A stretch of DNA of 64,000 nt from Candidatus Marinacidobacterales bacterium (GTDB lineage: Bacteria > Acidobacteriota > Vicinamibacteria > Marinacidobacterales > SMYC01): contig OZ250169.1 of assembly GCA_965237955.1 (NCBI GenBank), positions 1,888,001-1,952,000 on the forward strand, given 5' to 3'. The position numbers and the translations under genes are program-made. Shown here piece after piece: positions 48,750 through 60,123 of the stretch. The notes under the pieces are model-generated. The model was not told the origin of the DNA and searched no databases. It was given only the letters and a program-made list of their open reading frames with translations. Position 1 is the first letter of the stretch, and every line of letters begins with the position of its first letter.

Positions 48750-51443
48750 ATGCCAACGGGCTCGAGCTCGTCCAGGGACTCGCGCGAGCTCCTTCTGCTC
48801 GTCGACGGGAATAACTTAGTCTACCGGTCGTTTTTCGCCATTCCCCCTCTCGCGAACCGCTCGGGCATCCCGACGAACGCGGTCCTCGGCTTTGCCAACG
48901 TGCTCCGAAAGCTCCTCGCCGATGAGACGCCGGCGCTGGCCGCAGTGACCTTCGACGCAGGCGGGAAGACGTTTCGTCATGAACGGTTCGAGGCGTACAA
49001 GGCGAACCGGCCGCCGACGCCGCCCGACCTGAGGCAACAAATCCCGCATACGCGAAGACTGTGCGAAGTGCTGGGTCTAACCATCGTCGAAATTTACGGT
49101 GTCGAAGCGGACGACATCATCGGGACGCTGGCGCGCCGCGGGCTCGAGGCGGGCTACCGCGTTGACATCGTCACCTCGGACAAAGATCTGTTCCAACTCG
49201 TGGGCGATGACATCACTGTCGTCCATCCCGTCCAATACGAGCGTCTCGATGCGGCGGGCGTCGAGAAAAAGCTCGGTGTTGCTCCCGAGCGGGTGGTGGA
49301 TTTCCTCGCGATGAAGGGCGATGCGGTGGACAACGTTCCCGGCGTGCCCGGGATCGGGGACAAGGGCGCAGCGAAGCTCATCAACGAGTGGGAAACGCTG
49401 GAAGAGATTCTCGCCCATGCGGACGAGGTCAAGAACAAGCGACAGCGAGAGGCGTTGAAAGAGCACCACGATACGGCGCTGCTCTCGAAAGAGCTGGTTA
49501 CCATCGACACCAGGCTGGATTTCGAGCTCGACCCCGAAGAGCTCCGCTACAAGGGTGCGGACCGCGATGCCGCGTTCGCGCTCTTCGAAGAGCTCGAGTT
49601 CACGACACACATCAAAGATTATTTGCCAGCAGGGGAGCCCGTCGACCTCACCGCGTCGTTTCGGGCGCTCGGCTCGAAGAGCGAGCTCTCGAGCTTCGTC
49701 GATGCCGCCAAAAAACGCGGGAAGGTCTCTGTTTGGCTCGATTTGACCGAAGTGAAGCGCTTCGCTCCCTGGAATCAGCGCCTTGTCGGCCTCGGTCTCG
49801 CCGTCGAGCCCGGCGAAGGCGTGTACGCGACACTCGACGAAGCTGATCTTCTGGCAAGTTTGAAGGACATTGTGAGCGATCGCGATGTTGTCAAAGTTGG
49901 GCATGATCTGAAACAAGCGGTGACCTTCTTCGGGGCGCGTGGCATCCAATTTCGCGGTCTTGGCTTCGATACGAGAATCGCGGCTTACGTCTTGAACCCT
50001 TCGCGTCGCTCGCAGGATCTAGGCGAGCTTCTGCTGGAGTTCCTGCAAACGCCGCTCACGAAAGCGGGGGACGGGCAGGATGGGCAAGATCAGGGCGTTT
50101 TGCCAGGGCTCGCCGAGCCCGGTGCCGAAGCCACGGGGCCGCTCAACGCCGAGCGCGCGGAGCGAATCCTACGGCTCGAAGAGAAAATGGAGCGGCGCAT
50201 CGAAGACGAAGAGCTGGGCGAGGTCTTTCGAGATATCGAGATGCCCCTCATCGAAGTCCTTGCGCGTATGGAGCTCGCGGGGATCGCCATCGATCGCGAC
50301 GAGTTCATCGCGATGGCAAAGACGATCGATAGAGACATCGACGCGCTCACGAAAGAGATTCACGAGCTCGCCGGCGTCGAGTTCAACATCAACTCGCCAC
50401 GGCAGCTCGGCGAGATCCTGTTCGACAAGATGAACCTTCCATCGTTCAAGAAGACGGAGAAGCAACGAGCCGCATCGACTCGGGTGGAGGTGCTCGAGGA
50501 GCTCGCTCGAAGTTTCCCGTTTCCGCGTAAGGTTCTCGACTACCGGAGCCTGGCGAAGCTCAAAGGGACTTACGTCGACGCGCTCCCGAATCTGGTGAGC
50601 CCGGAGACAGGCCGTATCCACACCACGTTCAATCAAACGGTCGCCGCGACCGGGAGACTCTCGTCAAGCGACCCCAACCTTCAGAACATTCCGATCCGTA
50701 CTGAGCTAGGGCGGCGGCTCCGGCGTGCGTTTGTGGCCGAGCCGGGGTCGCAGTTGCTCTCGGCGGATTATTCACAAATCGAGCTTCGGGTTTTGGCACA
50801 CCTCAGCAAGGACGAGAACCTCATCAAGGCGTTTCGGGACGACGAAGACATCCACGATCGGACCGCGCAGCACGTCTTTGGTGATGTGGTGGAGCTTGAC
50901 GATATCGAGCGGCGCGAACGGCGTCGCCGGGCGAAGATCATCAACTTCAGCATTATTTATGGCAAGACGGCCTACACGCTCGGGAAGGACTTCGCCATCC
51001 CGACCCGAGAGGCGCAGGCGTTCATCGATAGCTACTTCGAACGGTACCCGAAGGTGCGCGAGCTCCTCGACGAGATCATTCTTGACGCGCGCAAGACGGG
51101 GAAAGTACGAACGCTCTTCGGCCGGCAGCGCTACGTGCCCGAGATTGGCTCCCGCAATCGCAATACCCGGGCGGGCGCCGAGCGGGTGGCGGTGAATACC
51201 CCGATTCAGGGGACGGCTGCTGACCTTATCAAGAAAGCCATGCTCGATCTGTCGTGGGGGCTCGAGGAAGGGGGACTCCGCTCGCGCTTGCTGCTGCAAG
51301 TTCACGACGAGCTCGTGCTCGAAGTGCCCGAGGATGAATTGGATAGGGCGAGCGAGCTCGTACGCACGACCATGGAGGGCGTCTATCCGATGGATGTGCC
51401 CTTGAAGGTGGATTTGGCTGTTGGGAGATCGTGGGAACACTAA
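48750..51443 (+). CDS. polA: DNA polymerase I
   Basis: LVDGNNLVYR, YKANR, EADD, GDAVDNVPGVPGIG, TGRLSSSDPNLQNIP, ADYSQIELR and LQVHDEL. Confidence 0.97.
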   Translation: MPTGSSSSRDSRELLLLVDGNNLVYRSFFAIPPLANRSGIPTNAVLGFANVLRKLLADETPALAAVTFDAGGKTFRHERFEAYKANRPPTPPDLRQQIPHTRRLCEVLGLTIVEIYGVEADDIIGTLARRGLEAGYRVDIVTSDKDLFQLVGDDITVVHPVQYERLDAAGVEKKLGVAPERVVDFLAMKGDAVDNVPGVPGIGDKGAAKLINEWETLEEILAHADEVKNKRQREALKEHHDTALLSKELVTIDTRLDFELDPEELRYKGADRDAAFALFEELEFTTHIKDYLPAGEPVDLTASFRALGSKSELSSFVDAAKKRGKVSVWLDLTEVKRFAPWNQRLVGLGLAVEPGEGVYATLDEADLLASLKDIVSDRDVVKVGHDLKQAVTFFGARGIQFRGLGFDTRIAAYVLNPSRRSQDLGELLLEFLQTPLTKAGDGQDGQDQGVLPGLAEPGAEATGPLNAERAERILRLEEKMERRIEDEELGEVFRDIEMPLIEVLARMELAGIAIDRDEFIAMAKTIDRDIDALTKEIHELAGVEFNINSPRQLGEILFDKMNLPSFKKTEKQRAASTRVEVLEELARSFPFPRKVLDYRSLAKLKGTYVDALPNLVSPETGRIHTTFNQTVAATGRLSSSDPNLQNIPIRTELGRRLRRAFVAEPGSQLLSADYSQIELRVLAHLSKDENLIKAFRDDEDIHDRTAQHVFGDVVELDDIERRERRRRAKIINFSIIYGKTAYTLGKDFAIPTREAQAFIDSYFERYPKVRELLDEIILDARKTGKVRTLFGRQRYVPEIGSRNRNTRAGAERVAVNTPIQGTAADLIKKAMLDLSWGLEEGGLRSRLLLQVHDELVLEVPEDELDRASELVRTTMEGVYPMDVPLKVDLAVGRSWEH

Positions 51444-51458
51444 AATCTAGTTGGGGCG

Positions 51459-51640
51459 GCCATCAGCCATCAGCCGTCATCTTCCTCTTGATCCGCCATC
51501 AGCCGTCCGCCATCTGCCATCAGCAGGTTTGAGCTGCACGCGTTTTGGCGGGACACGAGCAGCTCGGTGTGCCGCCGTCCGGGGTTAGGGCAGCTCCGTC
51601 CTGCTGATGGCTGATGGCCGATGGCCGATGGCGACGGCCT
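51459..51640. repeat. Inverted arrays of the heptamer GCCATCA/TGATGGC
   Basis: Left arm gccatcagccatcagccgtca...gccatcagcagg and right arm cctgctgatggctgatggccgatggccgatggc, between convergent polA and HAD genes. Confidence 0.8.
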
Positions 51641-51652
51641 TCGGGCGCGACG

Positions 51653-52291
51653 CTAGTCGAGCCTGAAGCTATCTACTAAATGTCCCGCGTGAGGCAGGAT
51701 CAAATCAGGTTCTGCTTCCTCTAAAACAGATCGTGATCCGTACTCGCTCTCGACGCCTACCGTGTACGCCCCTACTTTTTGGCCCATGACGATGTCCTCG
51801 GGGCGGTCGCCGACGTAGACCGTCGCTTGGGGCGCGACGTCGAGGTGCTCGAGTGCACGGGTCAGGGGCGCCGGGTGGGGCTTTTTCTCTTCCGTGTCTT
51901 CGAAGCAAACGACGGCGGCGAAGAACTCGCCGAGCTCGAAATCGTCCAGCTCGCGGCGAACTCGGTCGCGGTTGCCGGCCGTCACCAGCCCAAGCGTGAG
52001 CCCGGCATCGCGCAAGCGCTCGAGGAGTTGACCAACGAACGGGAAGGGCTTGGAGACTTGGTTCCGATAGGTCCGCCGCCACATCTGATCGGCGTTATCC
52101 CACTCTTCGCGCGGTACCCCGAGCTTCTCGTAGGACTCATACCAGTTGGGACTGTAGGTCTCGAGGAATCGTTCGCGGTCGATATCGATACCGTAGTGCT
52201 CGAGGACCGTGATCGAGGCACGGTAGCCCGCCGGAAACGAATCGAGCAACGTGCCGTCCCAATCGAACAGGATGGCAGTGGATTCTTTCAT
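51653..52291 (-). CDS. HAD-superfamily hydrolase (phosphoglycolate phosphatase-like)
   Basis: FDWDGTLLDS, LVTAG, KKPHP and YVGDRPEDI. Confidence 0.88.
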   Translation of the reverse strand: MKESTAILFDWDGTLLDSFPAGYRASITVLEHYGIDIDRERFLETYSPNWYESYEKLGVPREEWDNADQMWRRTYRNQVSKPFPFVGQLLERLRDAGLTLGLVTAGNRDRVRRELDDFELGEFFAAVVCFEDTEEKKPHPAPLTRALEHLDVAPQATVYVGDRPEDIVMGQKVGAYTVGVESEYGSRSVLEEAEPDLILPHAGHLVDSFRLD

Positions 52292-52419
52292 GTGGCGTCT
52301 TAACAAGCTCTTCTCCCGATAGGGTACCACCACACAACTCTCCGTGACTCGAAGTCTCCCGTGCGCCGAACGCAAGCTCGTCGGACTGTTCCACACTACT
52401 CTCTGTGACGACTACACAT

Positions 52420-52460
52420 CCCCCTCACCCCAGGCCCTCTCCCCCACGGGGGAGAGGGAG
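52420..52460. repeat. REP-like palindrome CCCTCACCCC..GCCCTCTCCCCC-GGGGGAGAGGG
   Basis: Perfect GC-rich hairpin in a divergent intergenic region. Confidence 0.65.
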
Positions 52461-52563
52461 AGTCGGATCGACGAGCGGATCCTTTTGAAAGCTCGTCGGA
52501 CTAATATTAGGCGCTTGTTCTAGAATAGATCCTCAAACCAGTTCGCTAAGGAGAGTTTGCTCT

Positions 52564-53277
52564 ATGCCCTCGACACGATTCGTTTGGCTCTTAGGCTGCG
52601 TTTTGCTCTGCGCTCTTGCCGCCGGCTGTGGCGGAGGCGGCGGTCCGGCGGCCGAACCAGAGACAGTGGCTTCCGCGCCACCATCCGTGCCTTCCGGAGA
52701 CTCCGCCGACGAAGCGGGGTTAGAGGGGCTCGAAGAGGATTCCGAAGAGGGAGGATCTGATATCGCGACCGGCGCGTATCCGGTGGTCGAGATGCGCACC
52801 AACGTCGGCACGTTGGTGCTCGAGCTCTATCCTGACAAAGCCCCGAAGACCGTCGACAACTTTCTCTCGTATGTGCGCGGAGGGTTCTACGACGGGACCA
52901 TCTTCCACCGTGTCATGCCGGGGTTCGTCATCCAAGGCGGAGGGTTTACCGCGGACATGATGAAAAAAGACACCGAGCCTCCCATCGAGAACGAAGCCGA
53001 TAACGGGCTCTTGAACCTCCGGGGAGCGATTTGCATGGCGCGCACGGACGATCCCCAAAGCGCCACATCGCAGTTCTTCATCAACACCAAAGACAATCCG
53101 GCGCTCGATTTTCTAGAGCGCTCGCCCAGAGGTTGGGGCTATGCCGTGTTCGGCAAATTGATCGAGGGAATCGAGGTATTGGATAAGATCGAAAGCGCGC
53201 CCACGACGAGCCGAGACGGCTACCAGGACGTCCCCGTCGACGTCATTGTAATCGAAAGCGCGCGCATCATTAGCTGA
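52564..53277 (+). CDS. Cyclophilin-type peptidyl-prolyl isomerase, lipoprotein
   Basis: Lipobox LAAGC, APKTVDNF, FHRV, FVIQGGG, MART..PQSATSQFFIN and YAVFG. Confidence 0.92.
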   Translation: MPSTRFVWLLGCVLLCALAAGCGGGGGPAAEPETVASAPPSVPSGDSADEAGLEGLEEDSEEGGSDIATGAYPVVEMRTNVGTLVLELYPDKAPKTVDNFLSYVRGGFYDGTIFHRVMPGFVIQGGGFTADMMKKDTEPPIENEADNGLLNLRGAICMARTDDPQSATSQFFINTKDNPALDFLERSPRGWGYAVFGKLIEGIEVLDKIESAPTTSRDGYQDVPVDVIVIESARIIS

Positions 53278-53331
53278 TGAGGCGACACTGCGCGCAGTTC
53301 CGGGGGTGTCGACCAGTGGAAGAAAAAATAA

Positions 53332-53428
53332 CGCAAAGTCGCAAAGTCGCGAAGTCGCAAAGGGGTCGACGCCGCTTTGCTTCACTCGATTCGAGTTCTT
53401 TGCGCCTTTGCGTCTTCGCGCCTTTGCG
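53332..53428. repeat. Inverted arrays of the octamer CGCAAAGT/CTTTGCG
   Basis: cgcaaagtcgcaaagtcgcgaagtcgcaaag ... ctttgcgcctttgcgtcttcgcgcctttgcg. Confidence 0.75.
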
Positions 53429-53463
53429 ATTGTTTTTTGGCAACGGCCACTAGGCACTCGCAC

Positions 53464-54702
53464 TTGTCGCTGCGCGTGCTCCTGCTGCTGCCAACATCGA
53501 CTTACCGCACCCGCGACTTCATGGAAGCTGCGGCCCGACTAGGGGCTCTGGTCGTCGTCGCATCGGAAGAGCCCTCTACGATGGAGCGCCTCGCGGAAGA
53601 TTCGTTGCTGACGCTCGATTTCCTCGACGCTTCGGGATCGGCGGCGAAAGTGGTTTCGTTCCATGAGCGGTACCCGCTGAGCGCAGTCGTTTCCGTCGAC
53701 GAAGAGACGGCCGTCGTGGCCTCGACCATCTCCCAGAAGCTCGGTCTTCCTCATAACGCTCCCGAAGCCGCGATGCGAGCACGGCTCAAACACGTTATGC
53801 GCCGCGTCCTCGAAGCGGAGGGAGTTCCCGGTCCCGCGTATCGCGTGCTCGATACTGGGGACGATCCACGCCAGGCTGCGAGGCAGTTGCGCTATCCCGC
53901 CGTCGTCAAGCCGGTGTTTTTGTCAGGAAGCCGGGGAGTGCAACGGGTGAATGACGAAGAAGCGTTCGTCGGTGCGTTCGAGTGGTTGCGAAGCTTTCTC
54001 TCGCATCGCGACGTCAGAAAGCGCGGCGGCGAGCATGCAAGTGTCGTTCTACTGGAGGACTACGTACCGGGAGCCGAAGTTGCCCTCGAAGGGCTCTTGT
54101 CCGACGGGAAGCTCGAGATGCTCGCGCTCTTCGACAAACCCGATCCGCTCGAAGGCCCGTACTTCGAGGAGACGATCTACGTCACCCCGTCCCGGCTGTC
54201 GTCCGCGCTCAAAAACCAGATCGTCGAGGTCACGACACGTGCCGCTACGGCGCTTGGCTTGCGCCATGGCCCGGTCCACGCGGAGCTGAGACTGCCGCCT
54301 GAGCGCGCACCCTCGGTGATCGAGATTGCCGGAAGGTCGATCGGCGGGCTCTGCTCGCGGACGCTCCGTTTCGGTCTCGGCCTCTCTCTCGAAGAGCTGA
54401 TTTTGCGCCACGCTCTGGGTCGAGACGTGTCCGGTCTCGATCGTGAAGGGGGCGCTGCCGGCGTCATGATGATCCCAATCCCGAAAATGGGCATGCTCGA
54501 AGAGGTCACCGGCCTTGACGAAGCGAAGGCAACGGACGCGATCGAGGATGTAATCATCACCGCCCCACTTGGACGACGACTCGTACCTCTACCGGAAGGC
54601 TCGAGCTACCTGGGCTTCATCTTCGCCCGCGCCACGACACCCACCGAAGTCGAAGAGGCACTACGCGAAGCCCACCAAAAACTACGCTTCGCGATCAGCT
54701 GA
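53464..54702 (+). CDS. ATP-grasp domain protein (peptide/amide ligase-like)
   Basis: KHVMR, YPAVVKP..LSGSRGV, LLEDYVPG.E, HGPVHAE and IEIAGR; C-terminal YLGFIFA. Start TTG 53464 or GTG 53476. Confidence 0.85.
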   Translation: MSLRVLLLLPTSTYRTRDFMEAAARLGALVVVASEEPSTMERLAEDSLLTLDFLDASGSAAKVVSFHERYPLSAVVSVDEETAVVASTISQKLGLPHNAPEAAMRARLKHVMRRVLEAEGVPGPAYRVLDTGDDPRQAARQLRYPAVVKPVFLSGSRGVQRVNDEEAFVGAFEWLRSFLSHRDVRKRGGEHASVVLLEDYVPGAEVALEGLLSDGKLEMLALFDKPDPLEGPYFEETIYVTPSRLSSALKNQIVEVTTRAATALGLRHGPVHAELRLPPERAPSVIEIAGRSIGGLCSRTLRFGLGLSLEELILRHALGRDVSGLDREGGAAGVMMIPIPKMGMLEEVTGLDEAKATDAIEDVIITAPLGRRLVPLPEGSSYLGFIFARATTPTEVEEALREAHQKLRFAIS

Positions 54703-54743
54703 TGGCCGACGGCTGATGGCCGATGGCGTGTCGGCGGCCAAAT

Positions 54744-55334
54744 TCACTTCGACGGAGCGTAATAAGGGTTTCTTCCCGTCGCGTGGTCGGTCGTGTCCAT
54801 GATCGCGCCGATCTGGGGGACGGCTTGGCGGATTGATTTTTCCACACCCTGTTTCAACGTCACGTCGGCCATGCCGCAACCCTGGCACCCGCCGCCCATT
54901 TTAATGAAGACCTCGTTATTCTTGACGTCAATGAGCTCGACCCAGCCGCCGTGCGCGGCGACGGCGGGATTGATCTCGCCGTCGAGGACGCTTTGAATTT
55001 TCTTCTTGATCTCCTCGGGATCGGGAAGAGCGCGAAGCGCGTCTTCGGCGATCGGCGTCTCGTCGCTCGAAAGCACCGAGCGGATCACAGTGCCGACTTG
55101 CTTGGCGATCGGCATCCAGTTGCCGCCGGTCGCCGCGGAGACGGTGACGACGCTGTCCTGGACCAGGACCGACTCGACGGTGTCGATCGCGAAGATCTGT
55201 TCGGCTAGGGGCGAGCCCTCGGCTTGCGCCTTGGCGCCGAAATAGATGGAGCCGTCGGGATAAACGGGCCTGTCCACCGTGAAGCGACAGGTCTGGTCGT
55301 CCTTGGGCTCTGCCTGGATGCTTATCTCGTCCAT
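54744..55334 (-). CDS. nfuA: NfuA/NifU-like Fe-S cluster carrier (Nfu N-terminal plus NifU C-terminal domains)
   Basis: SPLAEQIF, INPAVAAHGG, GGGCQGC, TLKQGVE and DTTDHATGRNPYY; RBS AGGAGG. Confidence 0.85.
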   Translation of the reverse strand: MDEISIQAEPKDDQTCRFTVDRPVYPDGSIYFGAKAQAEGSPLAEQIFAIDTVESVLVQDSVVTVSAATGGNWMPIAKQVGTVIRSVLSSDETPIAEDALRALPDPEEIKKKIQSVLDGEINPAVAAHGGWVELIDVKNNEVFIKMGGGCQGCGMADVTLKQGVEKSIRQAVPQIGAIMDTTDHATGRNPYYAPSK

Positions 55335-55342
55335 TTTTCCTC

Positions 55343-56755
55343 CTAATACGGTTCCATGATACTACGGCGCGGCCCCGCTTCCGAGAGGACCAACTGGTCC
55401 TCGGTAGGCTCCGCTCAGCAAAACCACGCTTCGGTGAGGCGGGGCGCTTTGGCCGTCCCGGCTCCGAGTGGCACGTTCACACCGACGAGCTCGGCTAGAG
55501 AACGGAAAACATCAGGGTTCGACAAGCCGTCGCGCGTTCCCGACGCGACCAGGGCCGTCGCCTCTTCGTGGAGCCGATCCATCTCTGGATCGGGATGGGT
55601 CCAGCGATAGGTGAGCGCGGCGCGATCCAACTCACCGAGGTGCGGTCGAAGCCCGGGGTTTTCGAGTAGCAAGGCTCCCGGCGGCAAGAGAAGCCTCAAC
55701 GTGAGCTGGATCGGGTCGACGTGGTGGATGAGGTCCTCGTCGGCCACCCAACGAAACAGCTCGCGATAATCGTCGTAGCTCGTCCACGGGGTGAACGCCA
55801 CGAACGTGGGTCGAAGGGCAATCCCGGCTTCGCGTGTGAGCGTCAAGACTTCGCGTGCATCTCGGGCGGTGTGGCCCTTGTCGAGCTCTTCGAGCACACG
55901 GTCGCTCAACGATTCCACGGCGGAAACGATGAAGGTGCACCCTGAGTCCGCGAGCTCTTCCAAGTCGTCGCGTCGCTTGAGAATGTGCTCCACTTTCGCG
56001 GTGAAGTCGAACGTCATCGCCGGATGTTCTCGATGCATCGCGCGGACGATCTCGAGCGCGTGACGCGGTCCGTTCAGAAAATCGGGATCGGCGAAGTTGA
56101 TGTGGCGCGCGCCCGCCTCGACGAGCTGTCGGATATCGGAGAGCACGGTTTCCGGGGGCACGACGAAAAAGCGTCCGTGGTAGACCGGGGGCAGAGGGCA
56201 GTGCCTGCAGTGATGGCGGCAGCCGCGACTCGCTTCGACGGTTCCGACGATCGCGTGCGATCCGTCGGTGCGCTCGACATGAACGTAGCGGTCGAGCTTC
56301 GGGAGCTGGGCTCGCTCGGGCACGAGATAGTCGAGTCGCTTCCGAAACGGTGCCGGTACCAGGGGCACGCGCTCGTCCCGGGTGATCCAGGACACCAGCG
56401 CTTCGTCGCACTCGCCACTCAAAACGGCATCGGCTCCGGCACTATCGACGAGCATTTCCGAGTTGAGGGTGGCATAGAGCCCGTAAAAGCAAAGTTGGCA
56501 GCCTGGATTGAGCTCCAGGACGCGCTCGGCCACGAGGACACCCAGACGGAGCGCCGTGTGCATCGGGACCGATACCGCGACGAAATCCGCGCGCCGTACT
56601 TTGTCCTCGTCGAGCGGATCCACGCCCAGATCGATGGCCTCGGCCTCGATGCCAGCGCGCTCCAAAAAAGCCAGTGGGCTCGCCAGACCCAACGGCTGGT
56701 GTCCCAACTCGTAGCACGAGATCAGGAGCACGTTGGGGCGTGCGGGATGGTGCAT
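55343..56755 (-). CDS. B12-binding radical SAM selenoprotein, CUAEP-tail type (UGA at 55415-55417 read as Sec)
   Basis: N-terminal ISCYELGHQPLGLA and SVPMHTA; SRGCRHHCRHCP; C-terminal EAWFC-TGA-AEPTEDQL...PY-TAG; hairpin 3' of the UGA. Confidence 0.85.
55381..55404 (-). promoter_or_regulatory. Putative bacterial SECIS hairpin
   Basis: mRNA CCGAGGACC-AGUU-GGUCCUCUCGG begins 10 nt after the UGA; the apical loop with G is about 19 nt downstream. Confidence 0.7.
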
Positions 56756-57053
56756 GACACTATTTATGACTAATCTGGTAACAAAAGTCCAATCAAACGT
56801 TCGGGTGTTGCCCAGCCTTCGTGCCCGTGCCCTACCCCCTCCTCGATACTAAAATGATGATAGGAGCCATCGACTTCTGACTTCGAGCCCGGCTGCCGAA
56901 TGTGCGGCAATCTTGGACGTTTTGCCAGCGATGGCGCGCGAGCGAAAACGGATCGGGCACGGGCACGGGGGGTGGCAATCTAGTTATCGGGAACTGGATT
57001 CCATAAAACGGAACGTGCATAATGCACGGGCATCTACGCCGCCCATCTCACGG

Positions 57054-59240
57054 ATGAGGATATCGGGGTCTCGAATACCTGGCACTTCTGACCAACCGGG
57101 CATCGCTATCGCCGGATACACCTTACGAGGTCTCCTGTTTGCTTTTCTCCTCGTCGCTCCGGCGGAGGTCCGCGCCCAAGATGAAGTGACCCTGCAGGCG
57201 GAAACCCAGCAACAGCTGGGCGACGGTCTCGTCAAAGCTGAGGGGTACGTTTCCATCCGTGCCGGATCGGCGCACCTGACCGCGGATCGTGTCGATTATT
57301 GGCCAGATGAAGGCCGCGTCGTTGCCGAGGGCAACGTCGTGTACCAGCAAGACGACCAGAAGATCGTTGCCGCTCGGCTCGAGGTAGACCTGAATACCAA
57401 AACCGGCCGGTTCTTGAACGCTTTCGGTATGGCGGGCCGCGACTTCTACTTCTATGGGGATGTCATCGAGAAAAAGTCCGAGGACATTTACGTTATCGAG
57501 GGCGGCTGGTTTACGTCGTGCGCGCAGCCGACCCCTCGGTGGCAGTTCACTGCCGGTAAGGCGACGCTGAAGCGAGACCACCACGTATCGCTCCATCACA
57601 CGCTGTTGCGGGTGAAGTCGCTCCCGGTGTTCTACTTGCCCTATTTCTATTACCCCATCAACGACGAGGACCGCTCCACGGGGCTGTTATTGCCCCAGAT
57701 CGGGAACTCCTCGTTGAAAGGCTTCATCTACAACCAAGCGTTCTTTTGGGCGATCAACCGTTCGATGGACGCGACGTTTACCTTCGAGCGGTTTTCGGAG
57801 ATCGGAAACGGTGGCTCACTCGAATACCGCTACGTCGAAAGCCCCGGCTCACGAGGTGAGGTCGACGCGTTCTTGATTCGGAACTCGCAGGCGAACACCC
57901 AGGAGTACACCATCAACGCGTTCGTGAACCAGAGACTGCCCTGGAACTTCAAAGCGGTCGCTCGCGTCGATTTTTTCAGCAGCTTCGAGTTCCAGCAGCA
58001 GTTTCAGGAAAACTACAACCGTGCCACGAGGCGCTCCAAGAGAGCATCGGGCACGATCTCTGGATCGTTCAACCAGTACAACCTCCGTATCCTGTTCGAT
58101 CGCAACGACACGTCCTTCGGTGAGCGTGTTGCGGTCCGGAAGATCCTGCCGAGCGTGAAGCTGAGCTCGCGCCCGAGCGAGATTTTCGGCACGCCGATTC
58201 TCTTCTCGTTCAAGACGGAGGCGACATCTCTCGCGCGAACCACCCGGGGCCAGTTGTTCGAGTACGAGCGCTTCGACGTTTTCCCGACCGTGTCCTATCC
58301 GTTCACGGGCCTGAGCTATCTAACAGCGCGCCTGAGCCTCTCGGGACGATACACGCACTATACGTCGGCGTTGGCAGGCCGAGACCTCGAAGACGTGGGT
58401 ATCGACCGGAAGTACTTCGAGACGCGCATGGACGTCCGTGGCCCGACGTTCGCGAAGATTTTCAATTCTGACAACGGTGGCTACGCGGCGGCGTACAAGC
58501 ACATCATCGAGCCTCAAGTGGTGTGGAGTTATCGCTCACGCGTCGACAACTTCGACTTCATCCCCAAGTTCGACGGTCAGGACTACGTTCCGGGAACCAA
58601 CCAGGTCGCGTTCTCTCTCGTCAACCGTTTTCTTGCGAAGCGCATCGTCAACGGAAAAGAGCAGCAGACCGCGACCGCGATGCTGACGTGGACCCTCTCC
58701 CAGCGCTACTTCTTCAACATCAACGCGTCGCTCTACGACCGGCAATTCTCGACGCCCTACTATTCAGAGGGCGGTATTCCGAGTAGTCGCTCGCCGATTA
58801 CTTCCCGAGTAAACTACCGCCCGTCACGAAACCTCACCGCCAGTTGGAACTTGGACTACGACTTGAACTTCAACGCGATCCGCTCCTCGAGCACCGCGGC
58901 GACTTATGGAGGACGGTGGGGGTCGGTGCGCGGTCTGTGGACGCGCCGCAATATTCCCGATCGGGATGTCAAACGCAGCAACTTCCGGATCGGTACCGCG
59001 TTGAACGTAGCCCGCGGAACTCAAGTCAACTTTAACACGAGCTACGACGTCACTTCGAGAGAGCTCACCAACGTGCGTGCCGGCGTTGTCTACAACATCC
59101 AATGCTGTGGGTTCATGGTCGAGTTCAACCGTTTCAACTTCCGCGGGTTCCGCGAAGAGAACACGATTCGGTTCGGGATTACGCTCGCCAATATCGGGAG
59201 CTTCGGCACCTCGCTCGGCGGTTCCGGGCGCGTGTACTGA
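57054..59240 (+). CDS. lptD: LPS assembly outer membrane protein LptD
   Basis: N-terminal jellyroll (LTADRV, AEGNV), FTSC...PRW, RSTGLLLP, KHIIEP, and a beta-barrel C-terminus with QCCG. Start uncertain. Confidence 0.85.
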   Translation: MRISGSRIPGTSDQPGIAIAGYTLRGLLFAFLLVAPAEVRAQDEVTLQAETQQQLGDGLVKAEGYVSIRAGSAHLTADRVDYWPDEGRVVAEGNVVYQQDDQKIVAARLEVDLNTKTGRFLNAFGMAGRDFYFYGDVIEKKSEDIYVIEGGWFTSCAQPTPRWQFTAGKATLKRDHHVSLHHTLLRVKSLPVFYLPYFYYPINDEDRSTGLLLPQIGNSSLKGFIYNQAFFWAINRSMDATFTFERFSEIGNGGSLEYRYVESPGSRGEVDAFLIRNSQANTQEYTINAFVNQRLPWNFKAVARVDFFSSFEFQQQFQENYNRATRRSKRASGTISGSFNQYNLRILFDRNDTSFGERVAVRKILPSVKLSSRPSEIFGTPILFSFKTEATSLARTTRGQLFEYERFDVFPTVSYPFTGLSYLTARLSLSGRYTHYTSALAGRDLEDVGIDRKYFETRMDVRGPTFAKIFNSDNGGYAAAYKHIIEPQVVWSYRSRVDNFDFIPKFDGQDYVPGTNQVAFSLVNRFLAKRIVNGKEQQTATAMLTWTLSQRYFFNINASLYDRQFSTPYYSEGGIPSSRSPITSRVNYRPSRNLTASWNLDYDLNFNAIRSSSTAATYGGRWGSVRGLWTRRNIPDRDVKRSNFRIGTALNVARGTQVNFNTSYDVTSRELTNVRAGVVYNIQCCGFMVEFNRFNFRGFREENTIRFGITLANIGSFGTSLGGSGRVY

Positions 59241-59259
59241 CAGATGCCGTGAAAATCCC

Positions 59260-60123
59260 GTGAAAATCCTGGTGACGGGAGCCGGTGGGCTCGTCGGAAG
59301 CCTCGTCGTCGAGCGCGCGGCGGCGGATCATGACATCCGCGGTCTTGTGCGTGCCGAGCTCGACGTCACCGACCCGGGCGCCGTCCGGAGCGCCGTTCGG
59401 GAGTTTTCCCCGCACGTCGTGCTACACTGCGCGGCTTACACCGACGTGGACGGCGCCGAGCGCAACCCGGAGCGGGCCCTCGAAGTGAACGCGGATGCCA
59501 CCGAGCAGGTGGCGGTCGCGGCCAAAGAGCTTGGAGCGAGCCTGGTCTATGTCAGCACCGACTATGTATTCGATGGCAAAGGGGCGACGCCCTATCGAGA
59601 AAGTGACGCCACAAAACCTCTCTCGAGCTACGGGGTCTCGAAGCTCGAAGGTGAGCGACGGGTGGAGGACGCGTGTCCCGAGCGCTTCATCATCGTTCGC
59701 ACCGGTTGGCTCTACGGAGCCGGCAAAGGTTTTGTGGACTGGGCCCGCGCCCGCCTGGTCGGGTCCGAGCAGCTTCCCGTCGTCGACGATCAAAAAGGCT
59801 CGCCGACATACGCGGGCGATCTGGCCGATGCGCTTCTCGAGCTCGCCACCGGCGCTCATCGTGGCGTCTTTCATTTCGTGAACCAAGGGGAAGCAACCTG
59901 GCTCGACCTCGGCCGCGCCGTCGCCCAAGAGCTGGGCCACGGCCCGGCGAAGTTGAAGCCGATCCGTGGGGAAACGCTGCGGCGTCCGGCACCGAGACCG
60001 GCGTATTCGGCTCTGTCAGTCAGCCACTACGAGAAAACGACTGCAAAGCGCGTTCGCCCCTGGCGCGAAGCGCTGAACGCATATTTGCGGATGGCTGATG
60101 GCCGACGGCCGATGGCGGATTGA
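59260..60123 (+). CDS. rfbD: dTDP-4-dehydrorhamnose reductase
   Basis: TGAGGLVG, CAAYTDVDGAE, STDYVFDG, YGVSKLEGE, DQKGSPT and APRPAYS. Confidence 0.92.
   Translation: MKILVTGAGGLVGSLVVERAAADHDIRGLVRAELDVTDPGAVRSAVREFSPHVVLHCAAYTDVDGAERNPERALEVNADATEQVAVAAKELGASLVYVSTDYVFDGKGATPYRESDATKPLSSYGVSKLEGERRVEDACPERFIIVRTGWLYGAGKGFVDWARARLVGSEQLPVVDDQKGSPTYAGDLADALLELATGAHRGVFHFVNQGEATWLDLGRAVAQELGHGPAKLKPIRGETLRRPAPRPAYSALSVSHYEKTTAKRVRPWREALNAYLRMADGRRPMAD

Follow-up and report, generated by a model that had tools for sequence, protein, structure and literature searches.

A predicted selenocysteine-tailed radical SAM enzyme, an Nfu-type carrier and an ATP-grasp ligase in Acidobacteriota: relationship to ArsL and a possible role in amino acid modification

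The locus

This report concerns a three-gene locus in the genome of a Candidatus Marinacidobacterales bacterium (Acidobacteriota; GenBank assembly GCA_965237955.1). The stretch analysed, called the window, is 64,000 nucleotides long (contig OZ250169.1, positions 1,888,001 to 1,952,000), and the genome is one contig of 8.13 Mb, 98% complete and 6% contaminated. The locus encodes a radical S-adenosylmethionine (SAM) enzyme with a predicted selenocysteine (Sec) near its end, an Nfu-type iron-sulfur (Fe-S) carrier and an ATP-grasp enzyme of the L-amino-acid-ligase type (Table 1). As described in an earlier first-pass annotation, the ATP-grasp gene converges on the radical SAM/nfu pair. This convergent arrangement is confined to the nearest relatives; across the loci compared, the ligase gene lies upstream, downstream or convergent.

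Gene callers end the radical SAM protein at 446 aa because a TGA is taken as its stop. The frame continues past this codon (...EAWFC-TGA-AEPTEDQL...MEPY-TAG) to a TAG at 55343-55345, which forms the first letters of a TAGGAGG site placed 8 nt before the nfu ATG at 55334. If translation ended at the TGA, 80 nt would separate stop and nfu start. The overlap of stop codon and ribosome-binding site had been taken to imply translational coupling. The overlap itself stands at this locus; strict coupling is not conserved, as the stop-to-start gaps in 15 homologous loci range from overlap to 206 nt with a crude choice of start codons.

Table 1. Features of the locus in window coordinates, with the ligases of ArsL plasmid clusters by locus handle
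Feature	Position	Strand	Remarks
Predicted radical SAM selenoprotein, coding sequence	55343..56755	minus	ATG at 56755; 470 aa with Sec447
CxxxCxxC cluster motif (C179, C183, C186)	56198..56221	minus	invariant in 90/90 aligned family members
Vicinal Cys446-Sec447 codons (TGC TGA)	55415..55420	minus	TGA itself at 55415-55417
Selenocysteine insertion sequence (SECIS)-type hairpin	55385..55402	minus	7-bp stem, loop AGUU, loop start 19 nt past UGA
TAG stop overlapping nfu ribosome-binding site	55339..55345	minus	read from sequence
nfu, Nfu-type Fe-S carrier, 196 aa	54744..55334	minus	PF08712 (Nfu_N) and PF01106 (NifU), CQGC
L-amino-acid-ligase-type ATP-grasp enzyme, 412 aa, TTG start	53464..54702	plus	PF13535, PF18130, PF18603
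Ligase Cys297 in RxIGGxC	54352..54354	plus	invariant, 57/57 sequences
ATP-grasp ligases of ArsL clusters	L130:447-1670, L131:2442-3674, L133:2632-3855, L134:7464-8780		Bacillus, Alicyclobacillus, Priestia and Pantoea plasmids

Selenocysteine encoding

That the in-frame UGA encodes selenocysteine is well supported by comparative evidence, because TGA and Cys codons alternate at this position in homologues, SECIS-type hairpins differ between the two forms and the sel genes are present in the genome. The comparison covered 96 loci, namely the window itself, 15 found by scanning genomes, 40 of 50 other Acidobacteriota hits, 20 of 26 actinomycete-group hits and 20 Rokubacteria-group stretches (drawn from 19 of the 47 hit genomes around one Rokubacteria genome). 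The codon is TGA in 78 loci and TGC or TGT in 14, with four unresolved. In an alignment of 90 sequences, from which the four unresolved loci and two with a frameshift or N were left out, C446, C/U447, E449 and P450 are invariant (90/90). Switching between Sec and Cys requires eight parsimony steps on a tree of 53 sequences, comprising 49 members (all Cys forms and about half of the TGA forms) and four Cys-bearing ArsL proteins as the root.

In bacteria, a SECIS element is expected to place its loop 16-37 nt downstream of the UGA, with a G at one of the first two positions of the loop and a stem of at least 4 bp. By our own heuristic built on this rule, a hairpin follows 61 of the 78 TGA codons and none of the 14 TGC/TGT codons, and the hairpin of the window passes. 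It has no Rfam match. Its folding energy is no better than that of shuffled sequences (z -0.15 to -0.76), and folding energy was dropped as evidence. The genome contains selA, selB, selC and selD; selA, selB and selD score above cut-off, and selC is represented by a tRNA-Sec (TCA). The read-through proposed by the first-pass annotation is thus upheld, and the codon alternation, the conserved residues beyond the UGA, the hairpin and the Sec machinery to which it had pointed were all found.

Outside Acidobacteriota, selD was found in 10 of 11 TGA-form genomes and 5 of 11 Cys-form genomes (completeness not given), and the six Cys-form genomes that lack it nonetheless have the ligase. In the genome of the window, selD (L003, G000:C1:4040942-4041856) lies within a 750-codon open frame and is probably part of a fusion.

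Family membership and relationship to ArsL

The enzyme matches NF040546, the model of the CUAEP/CCAEP-tail radical SAM family, over its whole length, with 601 bits when read through and 580 when truncated (cut-off 500). Both the C-[U/C]-A-E-P tail and CxxxCxxC are present. The membership assigned at first pass is therefore confirmed. The accompanying statement that the reaction of the family is unknown also agrees with the record, since the family is curated and is called uncharacterised in the passages available of its source (bioRxiv 10.1101/2022.07.06.499078). ArsL (NF040542) is the enzyme of the arsinothricin genes arsQML that forms the carbon-arsenic bond of this antibiotic. Its model gives 319 bits, below its cut-off of 450, and every other model gives at most 57 bits.

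The enzyme consists of an N-terminal Rossmann-like domain, a radical SAM barrel, an insert of about 45 residues relative to ArsL and the W-F-C-U-A-E-P tail. Compared with ArsL-family proteins from 36 plasmid records, it shows 31-35% identity over 88-91% of its length. The alignment is colinear to the last helix, and the Cys pair occupies the same terminal position. By sequence, the closest characterised relative of the enzyme is ArsL and not a B12 methyltransferase. This relationship is the main lead of the present analysis and was absent from the earlier interpretation.

The AlphaFold model of the enzyme has a mean predicted local distance difference test score of 95. Its best fold match is AprD4 (Z 26.9, 17% identity), which is not known to bind cobalamin. 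The B12 enzymes MgmA, OxsB and TsrM follow within 2-3 units (Z 24-25). Neither a sequence nor a fold search found a solved structure of ArsL or of the CUAEP family. The Rossmann fold is present, and PF02310 matches it with 27.2 bits (E 3.7e-6), below the gathering cut-off of 32.1.

What is known of ArsL bears on the function of the tail. ArsL cleaves SAM to methylthioadenosine and a 3-amino-3-carboxypropyl (ACP) species, which is bonded to tail-bound As(III); the tail carries no extra cluster, its removal leaving the Fe/S content unchanged, and phosphite analogues are not used (bioRxiv 10.1101/2024.02.01.577332). The tail binds As(III) and is required for C-As bond formation (10.1101/2024.02.01.577332; 10.64898/2026.04.29.721666, passages available). 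In the same passages of the latter source, inorganic arsenite is bound by each of the three cysteines of the tail, and the proposed intermediate is an electrophilic Fe-ACP species that nucleophiles could attack. According to excerpts of a review, ArsL also accepts methylated arsenicals, and methylarsenate is converted best by a mutant called MCCA (PMC13598754); the name, for which the excerpts give no definition, is read here as loss of the third tail cysteine.

Three roles had been offered for the Cys-Sec tail: binding of a metal(loid), an extra cluster and methyl acceptance. Metalloid binding is the best of the three. An extra cluster is disfavoured by the unchanged Fe/S content of tailless ArsL, and only five Cys/Sec positions are invariant in the family, which gives no hint of a second cluster. 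Neither methyl acceptance nor cobalamin dependence is supported, as discussed below.

The ATP-grasp ligase and its pairing with the enzyme

The ATP-grasp protein has the domains of L-amino-acid ligases (ATPgrasp_N, ATP-grasp_4 and LAL_C2). It is likely of this type, with a predicted dipeptide-forming activity. Its nearest solved relative is BL00235 (3VOT), with E 1e-38 by sequence and a template-modelling (TM) score of 0.84 by fold; in the ESM Atlas only unnamed ATP-grasp clusters were matched. Cys297 lies two residues past the position aligned with residue 332 of BacD, a substrate-pocket residue according to the passages available of PMC6920838, where BL00235 is also described as taking methionine at the N-terminal position. 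This cysteine is invariant in the near-complete ligase sequences, and neither BacD nor BL00235 has a Cys there.

The first-pass annotation had suggested a functional link between the two enzymes, and genome-level pairing bears this out. Among 301 Acidobacteriota genomes, 51 have the enzyme, 60 the ligase (E < 1e-60, three weaker matches of about 1e-32 set aside) and 49 both. The ligase thus occurs in 49 of 51 carriers and 11 of 250 non-carriers; related genomes are not independent, so the p-value overstates the association. In actinomycete and Nitrospiria carriers, the ligase was found in 21 of 22, of which 15 helped build the ligase profile; of the other seven, six have the ligase elsewhere in the genome. 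The ligase is a true partner of the radical SAM enzyme, although the 11 genomes that have the ligase alone speak against an obligate pairing. Conservation of the gene neighbourhood, to which the annotation had also pointed, is partial: the ligase is found at 60 of 96 loci and a NifU-domain gene at 45, with YggX in its place at 20.

The module spans several bacterial phyla. In the actinomycete-group sample, enzyme hits were found in 26 of 251 genomes. These tallies include unpublished genomes (at most three Acidobacteriota, G024, G049 and G152; five of the 26/251; and one of the 47/61 given below for the Rokubacteria group), and the claims at the level of loci rest on none of them. A cultured carrier is Thermomicrobium roseum, whose plasmid has the TGA-AEP form, with an annotation that ends at the UGA (L129:6935-8450), and no ligase within 7 kb (the chromosome was not searched for it).

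An ATP-grasp ligase is also encoded near arsM, arsN or aquaporin genes in four of the five ArsL plasmid clusters examined; none was found in the fifth. These ligases form a separate lineage, 21-25% identical to that of the window, and no description of them was found in the literature search. They are 35-54% alike among themselves, with a small protein alongside and, in some, MFS or GTP-binding genes also nearby. Such clusters may make arsinothricin peptides.

Iron-sulfur helpers and other neighbours

Neighbouring genes were counted in stretches of up to about 7 kb on each side of the enzyme, less at contig ends. Besides the ligase gene and the genes for a NifU domain or YggX, of which the last two never share a locus, the 96 loci hold DUF169 (11) and POT transporters (8). 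Iron and Fe-S are the recurring themes among 110 selected neighbour proteins. CDGSH appears in a cluster of neighbours from nine loci, and single or double cases include Mrp/ApbC, a class-V aminotransferase (desulfurase-like), rhodanese, ferredoxin, Rieske, NadA, aconitase and MoaA. LptD, peptidyl-prolyl isomerase, POT, SSF, MFS, CofD and a molybdopterin enzyme were rejected as partners, being lineage-local neighbours.

The carrier of the window had been named NfuA and described as dedicated to the enzyme. Neither term holds. It scores 94 bits against TIGR03341 (NfuA, cut-off 269) and is an Nfu_N plus NifU protein, its NifU domain (PF01106) scoring 80 bits with the CxxC in the form CQGC. Its gene is also the only NifU-domain gene found in the 8.1-Mb genome.

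In nine Methylomirabilota-group loci (L004, L110, L112, L118-L120, L122, L124 and L128) a small gene lies directly upstream of the enzyme, and a CDGSH iron-sulfur domain was confirmed in two of these. The genome of the window has two DUF169 genes with identical scores (G000:C1:2949902-2950576 and 3896382-3897056); their similarity to the DUF169 found beside the enzyme in other lineages is 27%. Nothing relevant on DUF169 was found in the portions of the literature that the search returned.

Proposed reaction and alternatives

From the comparative evidence for Sec, the family assignment, the kinship with ArsL, the co-occurrence of the ligase and the recurring Fe-S helpers, we infer a mode of SAM cleavage, an acceptor atom, an order of steps and a product. 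The likely product of the three proteins is a modified amino acid or dipeptide, which may contain arsenic. The enzyme would cleave SAM in the fashion of ArsL, and the ACP group would move to trivalent arsenic, probably methylarsenite, held on the vicinal Cys-Sec tail. The L-amino-acid ligase would then couple this arsinothricin-type amino acid with another one. Nfu (or YggX) would likely maintain the iron-sulfur cluster, and the ArsM-like genes of the genome could supply methylarsenite. A probability of roughly 35% is given to this arsenic route.

The choice of methylarsenite follows from the tail. With two conserved ligands, C446 and C/U447, the CUAEP tail would suit an arsenical with two free valences. 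The natural two-ligand tail thus points to methylarsenite and to a one-step route to arsinothricin, which would explain why no arsM is adjacent to the enzyme. The separate lineage of ligases in ArsL clusters suggests that the combination of an ArsL-type enzyme and a ligase arose in arsenic clusters too, and an ACP-arsenic amino acid followed by a ligase is plausibly a recurring design. ACP amino acids would share the backbone of methionine, matching the N-terminal preference of BL00235, and the invariant pocket Cys of the ligase also counts in favour of this route.

Substantial evidence weighs against the arsenic route. With 15 probes, no match to arsR, acr3, arsB, arsH, arsQ, aquaporin or CobW was found in the 96 loci, and only weak GNAT, phosphatase and partial methyltransferase matches appeared in three. 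ArsM-like genes are not enriched with the enzyme (36/51 carriers versus 158/250 non-carriers, p 0.34), and co-occurrence with arsM was rejected. The efflux gene acr3 is rarer in carriers (10/51 versus 127/250); the frequencies are equal within the class of the window (4/18 versus 2/9), so this deficit follows lineage and the anti-correlation was set aside. The enzyme is single-copy and common, occurring in 47 of 61 genomes of the Rokubacteria-group sample, and this together with the Fe-S and iron neighbours resembles a housekeeping function more than the making of an antibiotic. In 11 genomes the ligase is present and the enzyme absent, and no family member was found in the five rechecked (92-99% complete). 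Active-site motifs also differ between the CUAEP family and ArsL (PMHTA versus PLFD; GLYA versus GQHA or GQYA; CxHC versus CxYC). That the two share the non-canonical SAM cleavage is an assumption.

A sulfur or redox role is doubtful as well, and nearly as likely as the arsenic route. ArsL-like ACP chemistry would then act on a persulfide sulfur of the Cys-Sec tail, and the ligase would build the resulting homocysteine-type thiol into a thiol dipeptide for Fe-S or redox housekeeping. The electrophilic Fe-ACP species proposed for ArsL would be open to nucleophiles (10.64898/2026.04.29.721666, passages available). The Fe-S and iron genes around the enzyme (NifU domain, YggX, CDGSH and others) and the lack of ars genes at the probed loci favour this role. 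Nfu renews the sacrificial cluster of lipoyl synthase; the present enzyme, however, has no auxiliary-cluster cysteines among its five invariant Cys/Sec positions. A radical route from SAM to homocysteine would also look wasteful, and Nfu is the general carrier of the genome, so that its placement may reflect only co-regulation of Fe-S clients.

It is unlikely that the ligase acts first and that its dipeptide, or some other organic molecule, is then the substrate of the radical SAM enzyme in ordinary 5'-deoxyadenosyl chemistry, with Cys-Sec as a redox arm. The best fold match, AprD4, is a canonical enzyme, the 45-residue insert and the ExWxCUAEP residues (invariant in the family and lacking in ArsL) could form an organic pocket, and POT transporters recur at a few loci. 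AprD4 is, however, identical at no more than 17% of positions. The sequence of ArsL is twice as close, and no solved structure of it was found that could compete as a fold match.

Improbable, too, is a cobalamin-dependent methyltransferase whose tail would accept a methyl group or deliver it to a metal such as mercury, a reading in line with the cobalamin enzyme of the first-pass annotation. The weak PF02310 match and the closeness of MgmA, OxsB and TsrM to AprD4 speak for it, as does the CU motif shared with HgcA (passages available of bioRxiv 10.1101/2022.07.06.499078). Against it, PF02310 stays under its cut-off, the B12-methylase models all give at most 57 bits and no cobalamin riboswitch was found within 51000-59500. 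ArsL has the same N-terminal domain and is active, with cobalamin never mentioned in the main text of its description (bioRxiv 10.1101/2024.02.01.577332). The claims of cobalamin dependence and methyl acceptance were not sustained.

Just as improbable is ACP transfer to antimony, to tellurium or to the selenium of selenophosphate, with a dipeptide of a seleno- or stibo-amino acid as product. In its favour, all 51 Acidobacteriota carriers have selA, versus 235 of 301 genomes overall, and a Cys-Sec pair binds soft elements, but nothing points to Sb or Te, and a selenophosphate-derived product is weakened by the selD distribution, since the six genomes without selD keep the ligase and selenophosphate is thus not required.

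Other observations

The genome of the window contains ArsM-like and ArsC-like genes; its two ArsM-like genes lie away from the locus. One of them (L135:1468-2300, G000:C1 at about 2255640-2256470; 206 bits, ArsM cut-off 263) has an in-frame TGA (WTG-U-IAGALL) and is a probable second selenoprotein. The stretch G000:C1:7276402-7277316 matches the ArsM of a Pseudomonas arsinothricin cluster over its full length (35%, 203 bits). No acr3, arsB or arsP was found in this genome (98% complete, 8.1 Mb), the significance of which is ambiguous.

A promoter scan of the locus found none. Terminator-like sites numbered 7 against 3.5 expected, with none between the convergent genes, and an Rfam search over 51000-59500 gave one chance match, neither a SECIS element nor a cobalamin riboswitch. 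RNA libraries contain contigs of relatives, mostly 88-95% alike, that match parts of nfu and of the radical SAM gene (three runs) and parts of the ligase gene (mainly one run); such coverage shows neither transcription nor an operon. Just upstream of the ligase, an inverted repeat at 53323-53437 has 47-nt arms made of 8-nt tandem units, and many contigs of one DNA run pile up there with loose ends, as expected of a dispersed repeat. A 14-nt sequence stands in two tandem copies where the genes converge, at the stop codon of the ligase (54698-54725), and the ends of open reading frames near 60100 suggest a similar repeat.

Significance

The family is already curated, and the conserved module is best placed with the ArsL kind. 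New here are the pairing at genome level, the contrast in SECIS hairpins between TGA and Cys forms, the comparison of selD, the invariant Cys of the ligase, the presence of ligases in ArsL clusters and the hypothesis that methylarsenite is the acceptor. No literature linking the CUAEP family to ArsL, the ligase or Nfu/YggX was found in a search that covered few subscription journals and no supplements, and the main text of bioRxiv 10.1101/2022.07.06.499078 mentions neither ATP-grasp, ArsL nor arsinothricin. Published networks of ArsL homologues in supplements may already show the CUAEP family. The family is far larger than its sister ArsL, with 7997 clusters at E 1e-40 among the 8000 candidates scored, and gene callers mostly cut its members at the UGA.

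If the ArsL-like chemistry is correct, major uncultured phyla would have either an organoarsenic pathway of wide distribution or another type of non-canonical SAM chemistry, the second known. A more far-reaching version is rather doubtful: that abundant bacteria of soils and sediments (Methylomirabilota, Vicinamibacteria-like Acidobacteriota and some Actinomycetota) carry as standard equipment a selenium-dependent chromosomal pathway, from methylarsenite to arsinothricin in one step and on to an arsinothricin dipeptide via the Cys-bearing ligase. If true, the arsenic cycle would have a sink that has gone unrecognised, and arsenic peptide antibiotics would form a new class. The natural Cys forms can be expressed without Sec machinery, neither selenophosphate nor B12 is a supported requirement, and the question can be tested with published ArsL assays.

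Comparison with known systems

AprD4, MgmA, OxsB and TsrM resemble the enzyme in fold (Z 24-27 over 356-417 residues) at 17-18% identity and are without the Cys-Sec tail. Nfu-type carriers share Nfu_N and NifU with a CxxC; the loci of relatives use NifU alone, an A-type fusion or YggX. BL00235, BacD/YwfE and RizA share the three-domain fold of the ligase (TM 0.74-0.84) with an aligned RxxGG-type loop. The ligase differs from them in sequence (at most 26% identity), in having Cys297 in the pocket loop and in being tied to a predicted radical SAM selenoprotein. ArsL is like the enzyme in its two colinear domains, its single CxxxCxxC and its terminal vicinal Cys pair. Whereas ArsL ends in RCCLKC, with three tail cysteines, the CUAEP family ends in W[FY]C[CU]AEP, with Pro at the third position, Sec in most members and about 45 extra residues ahead of the tail. 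Genes of ars clusters accompany ArsL at five of five loci, while the CUAEP family has no ars genes nearby and is accompanied by Fe-S helpers.

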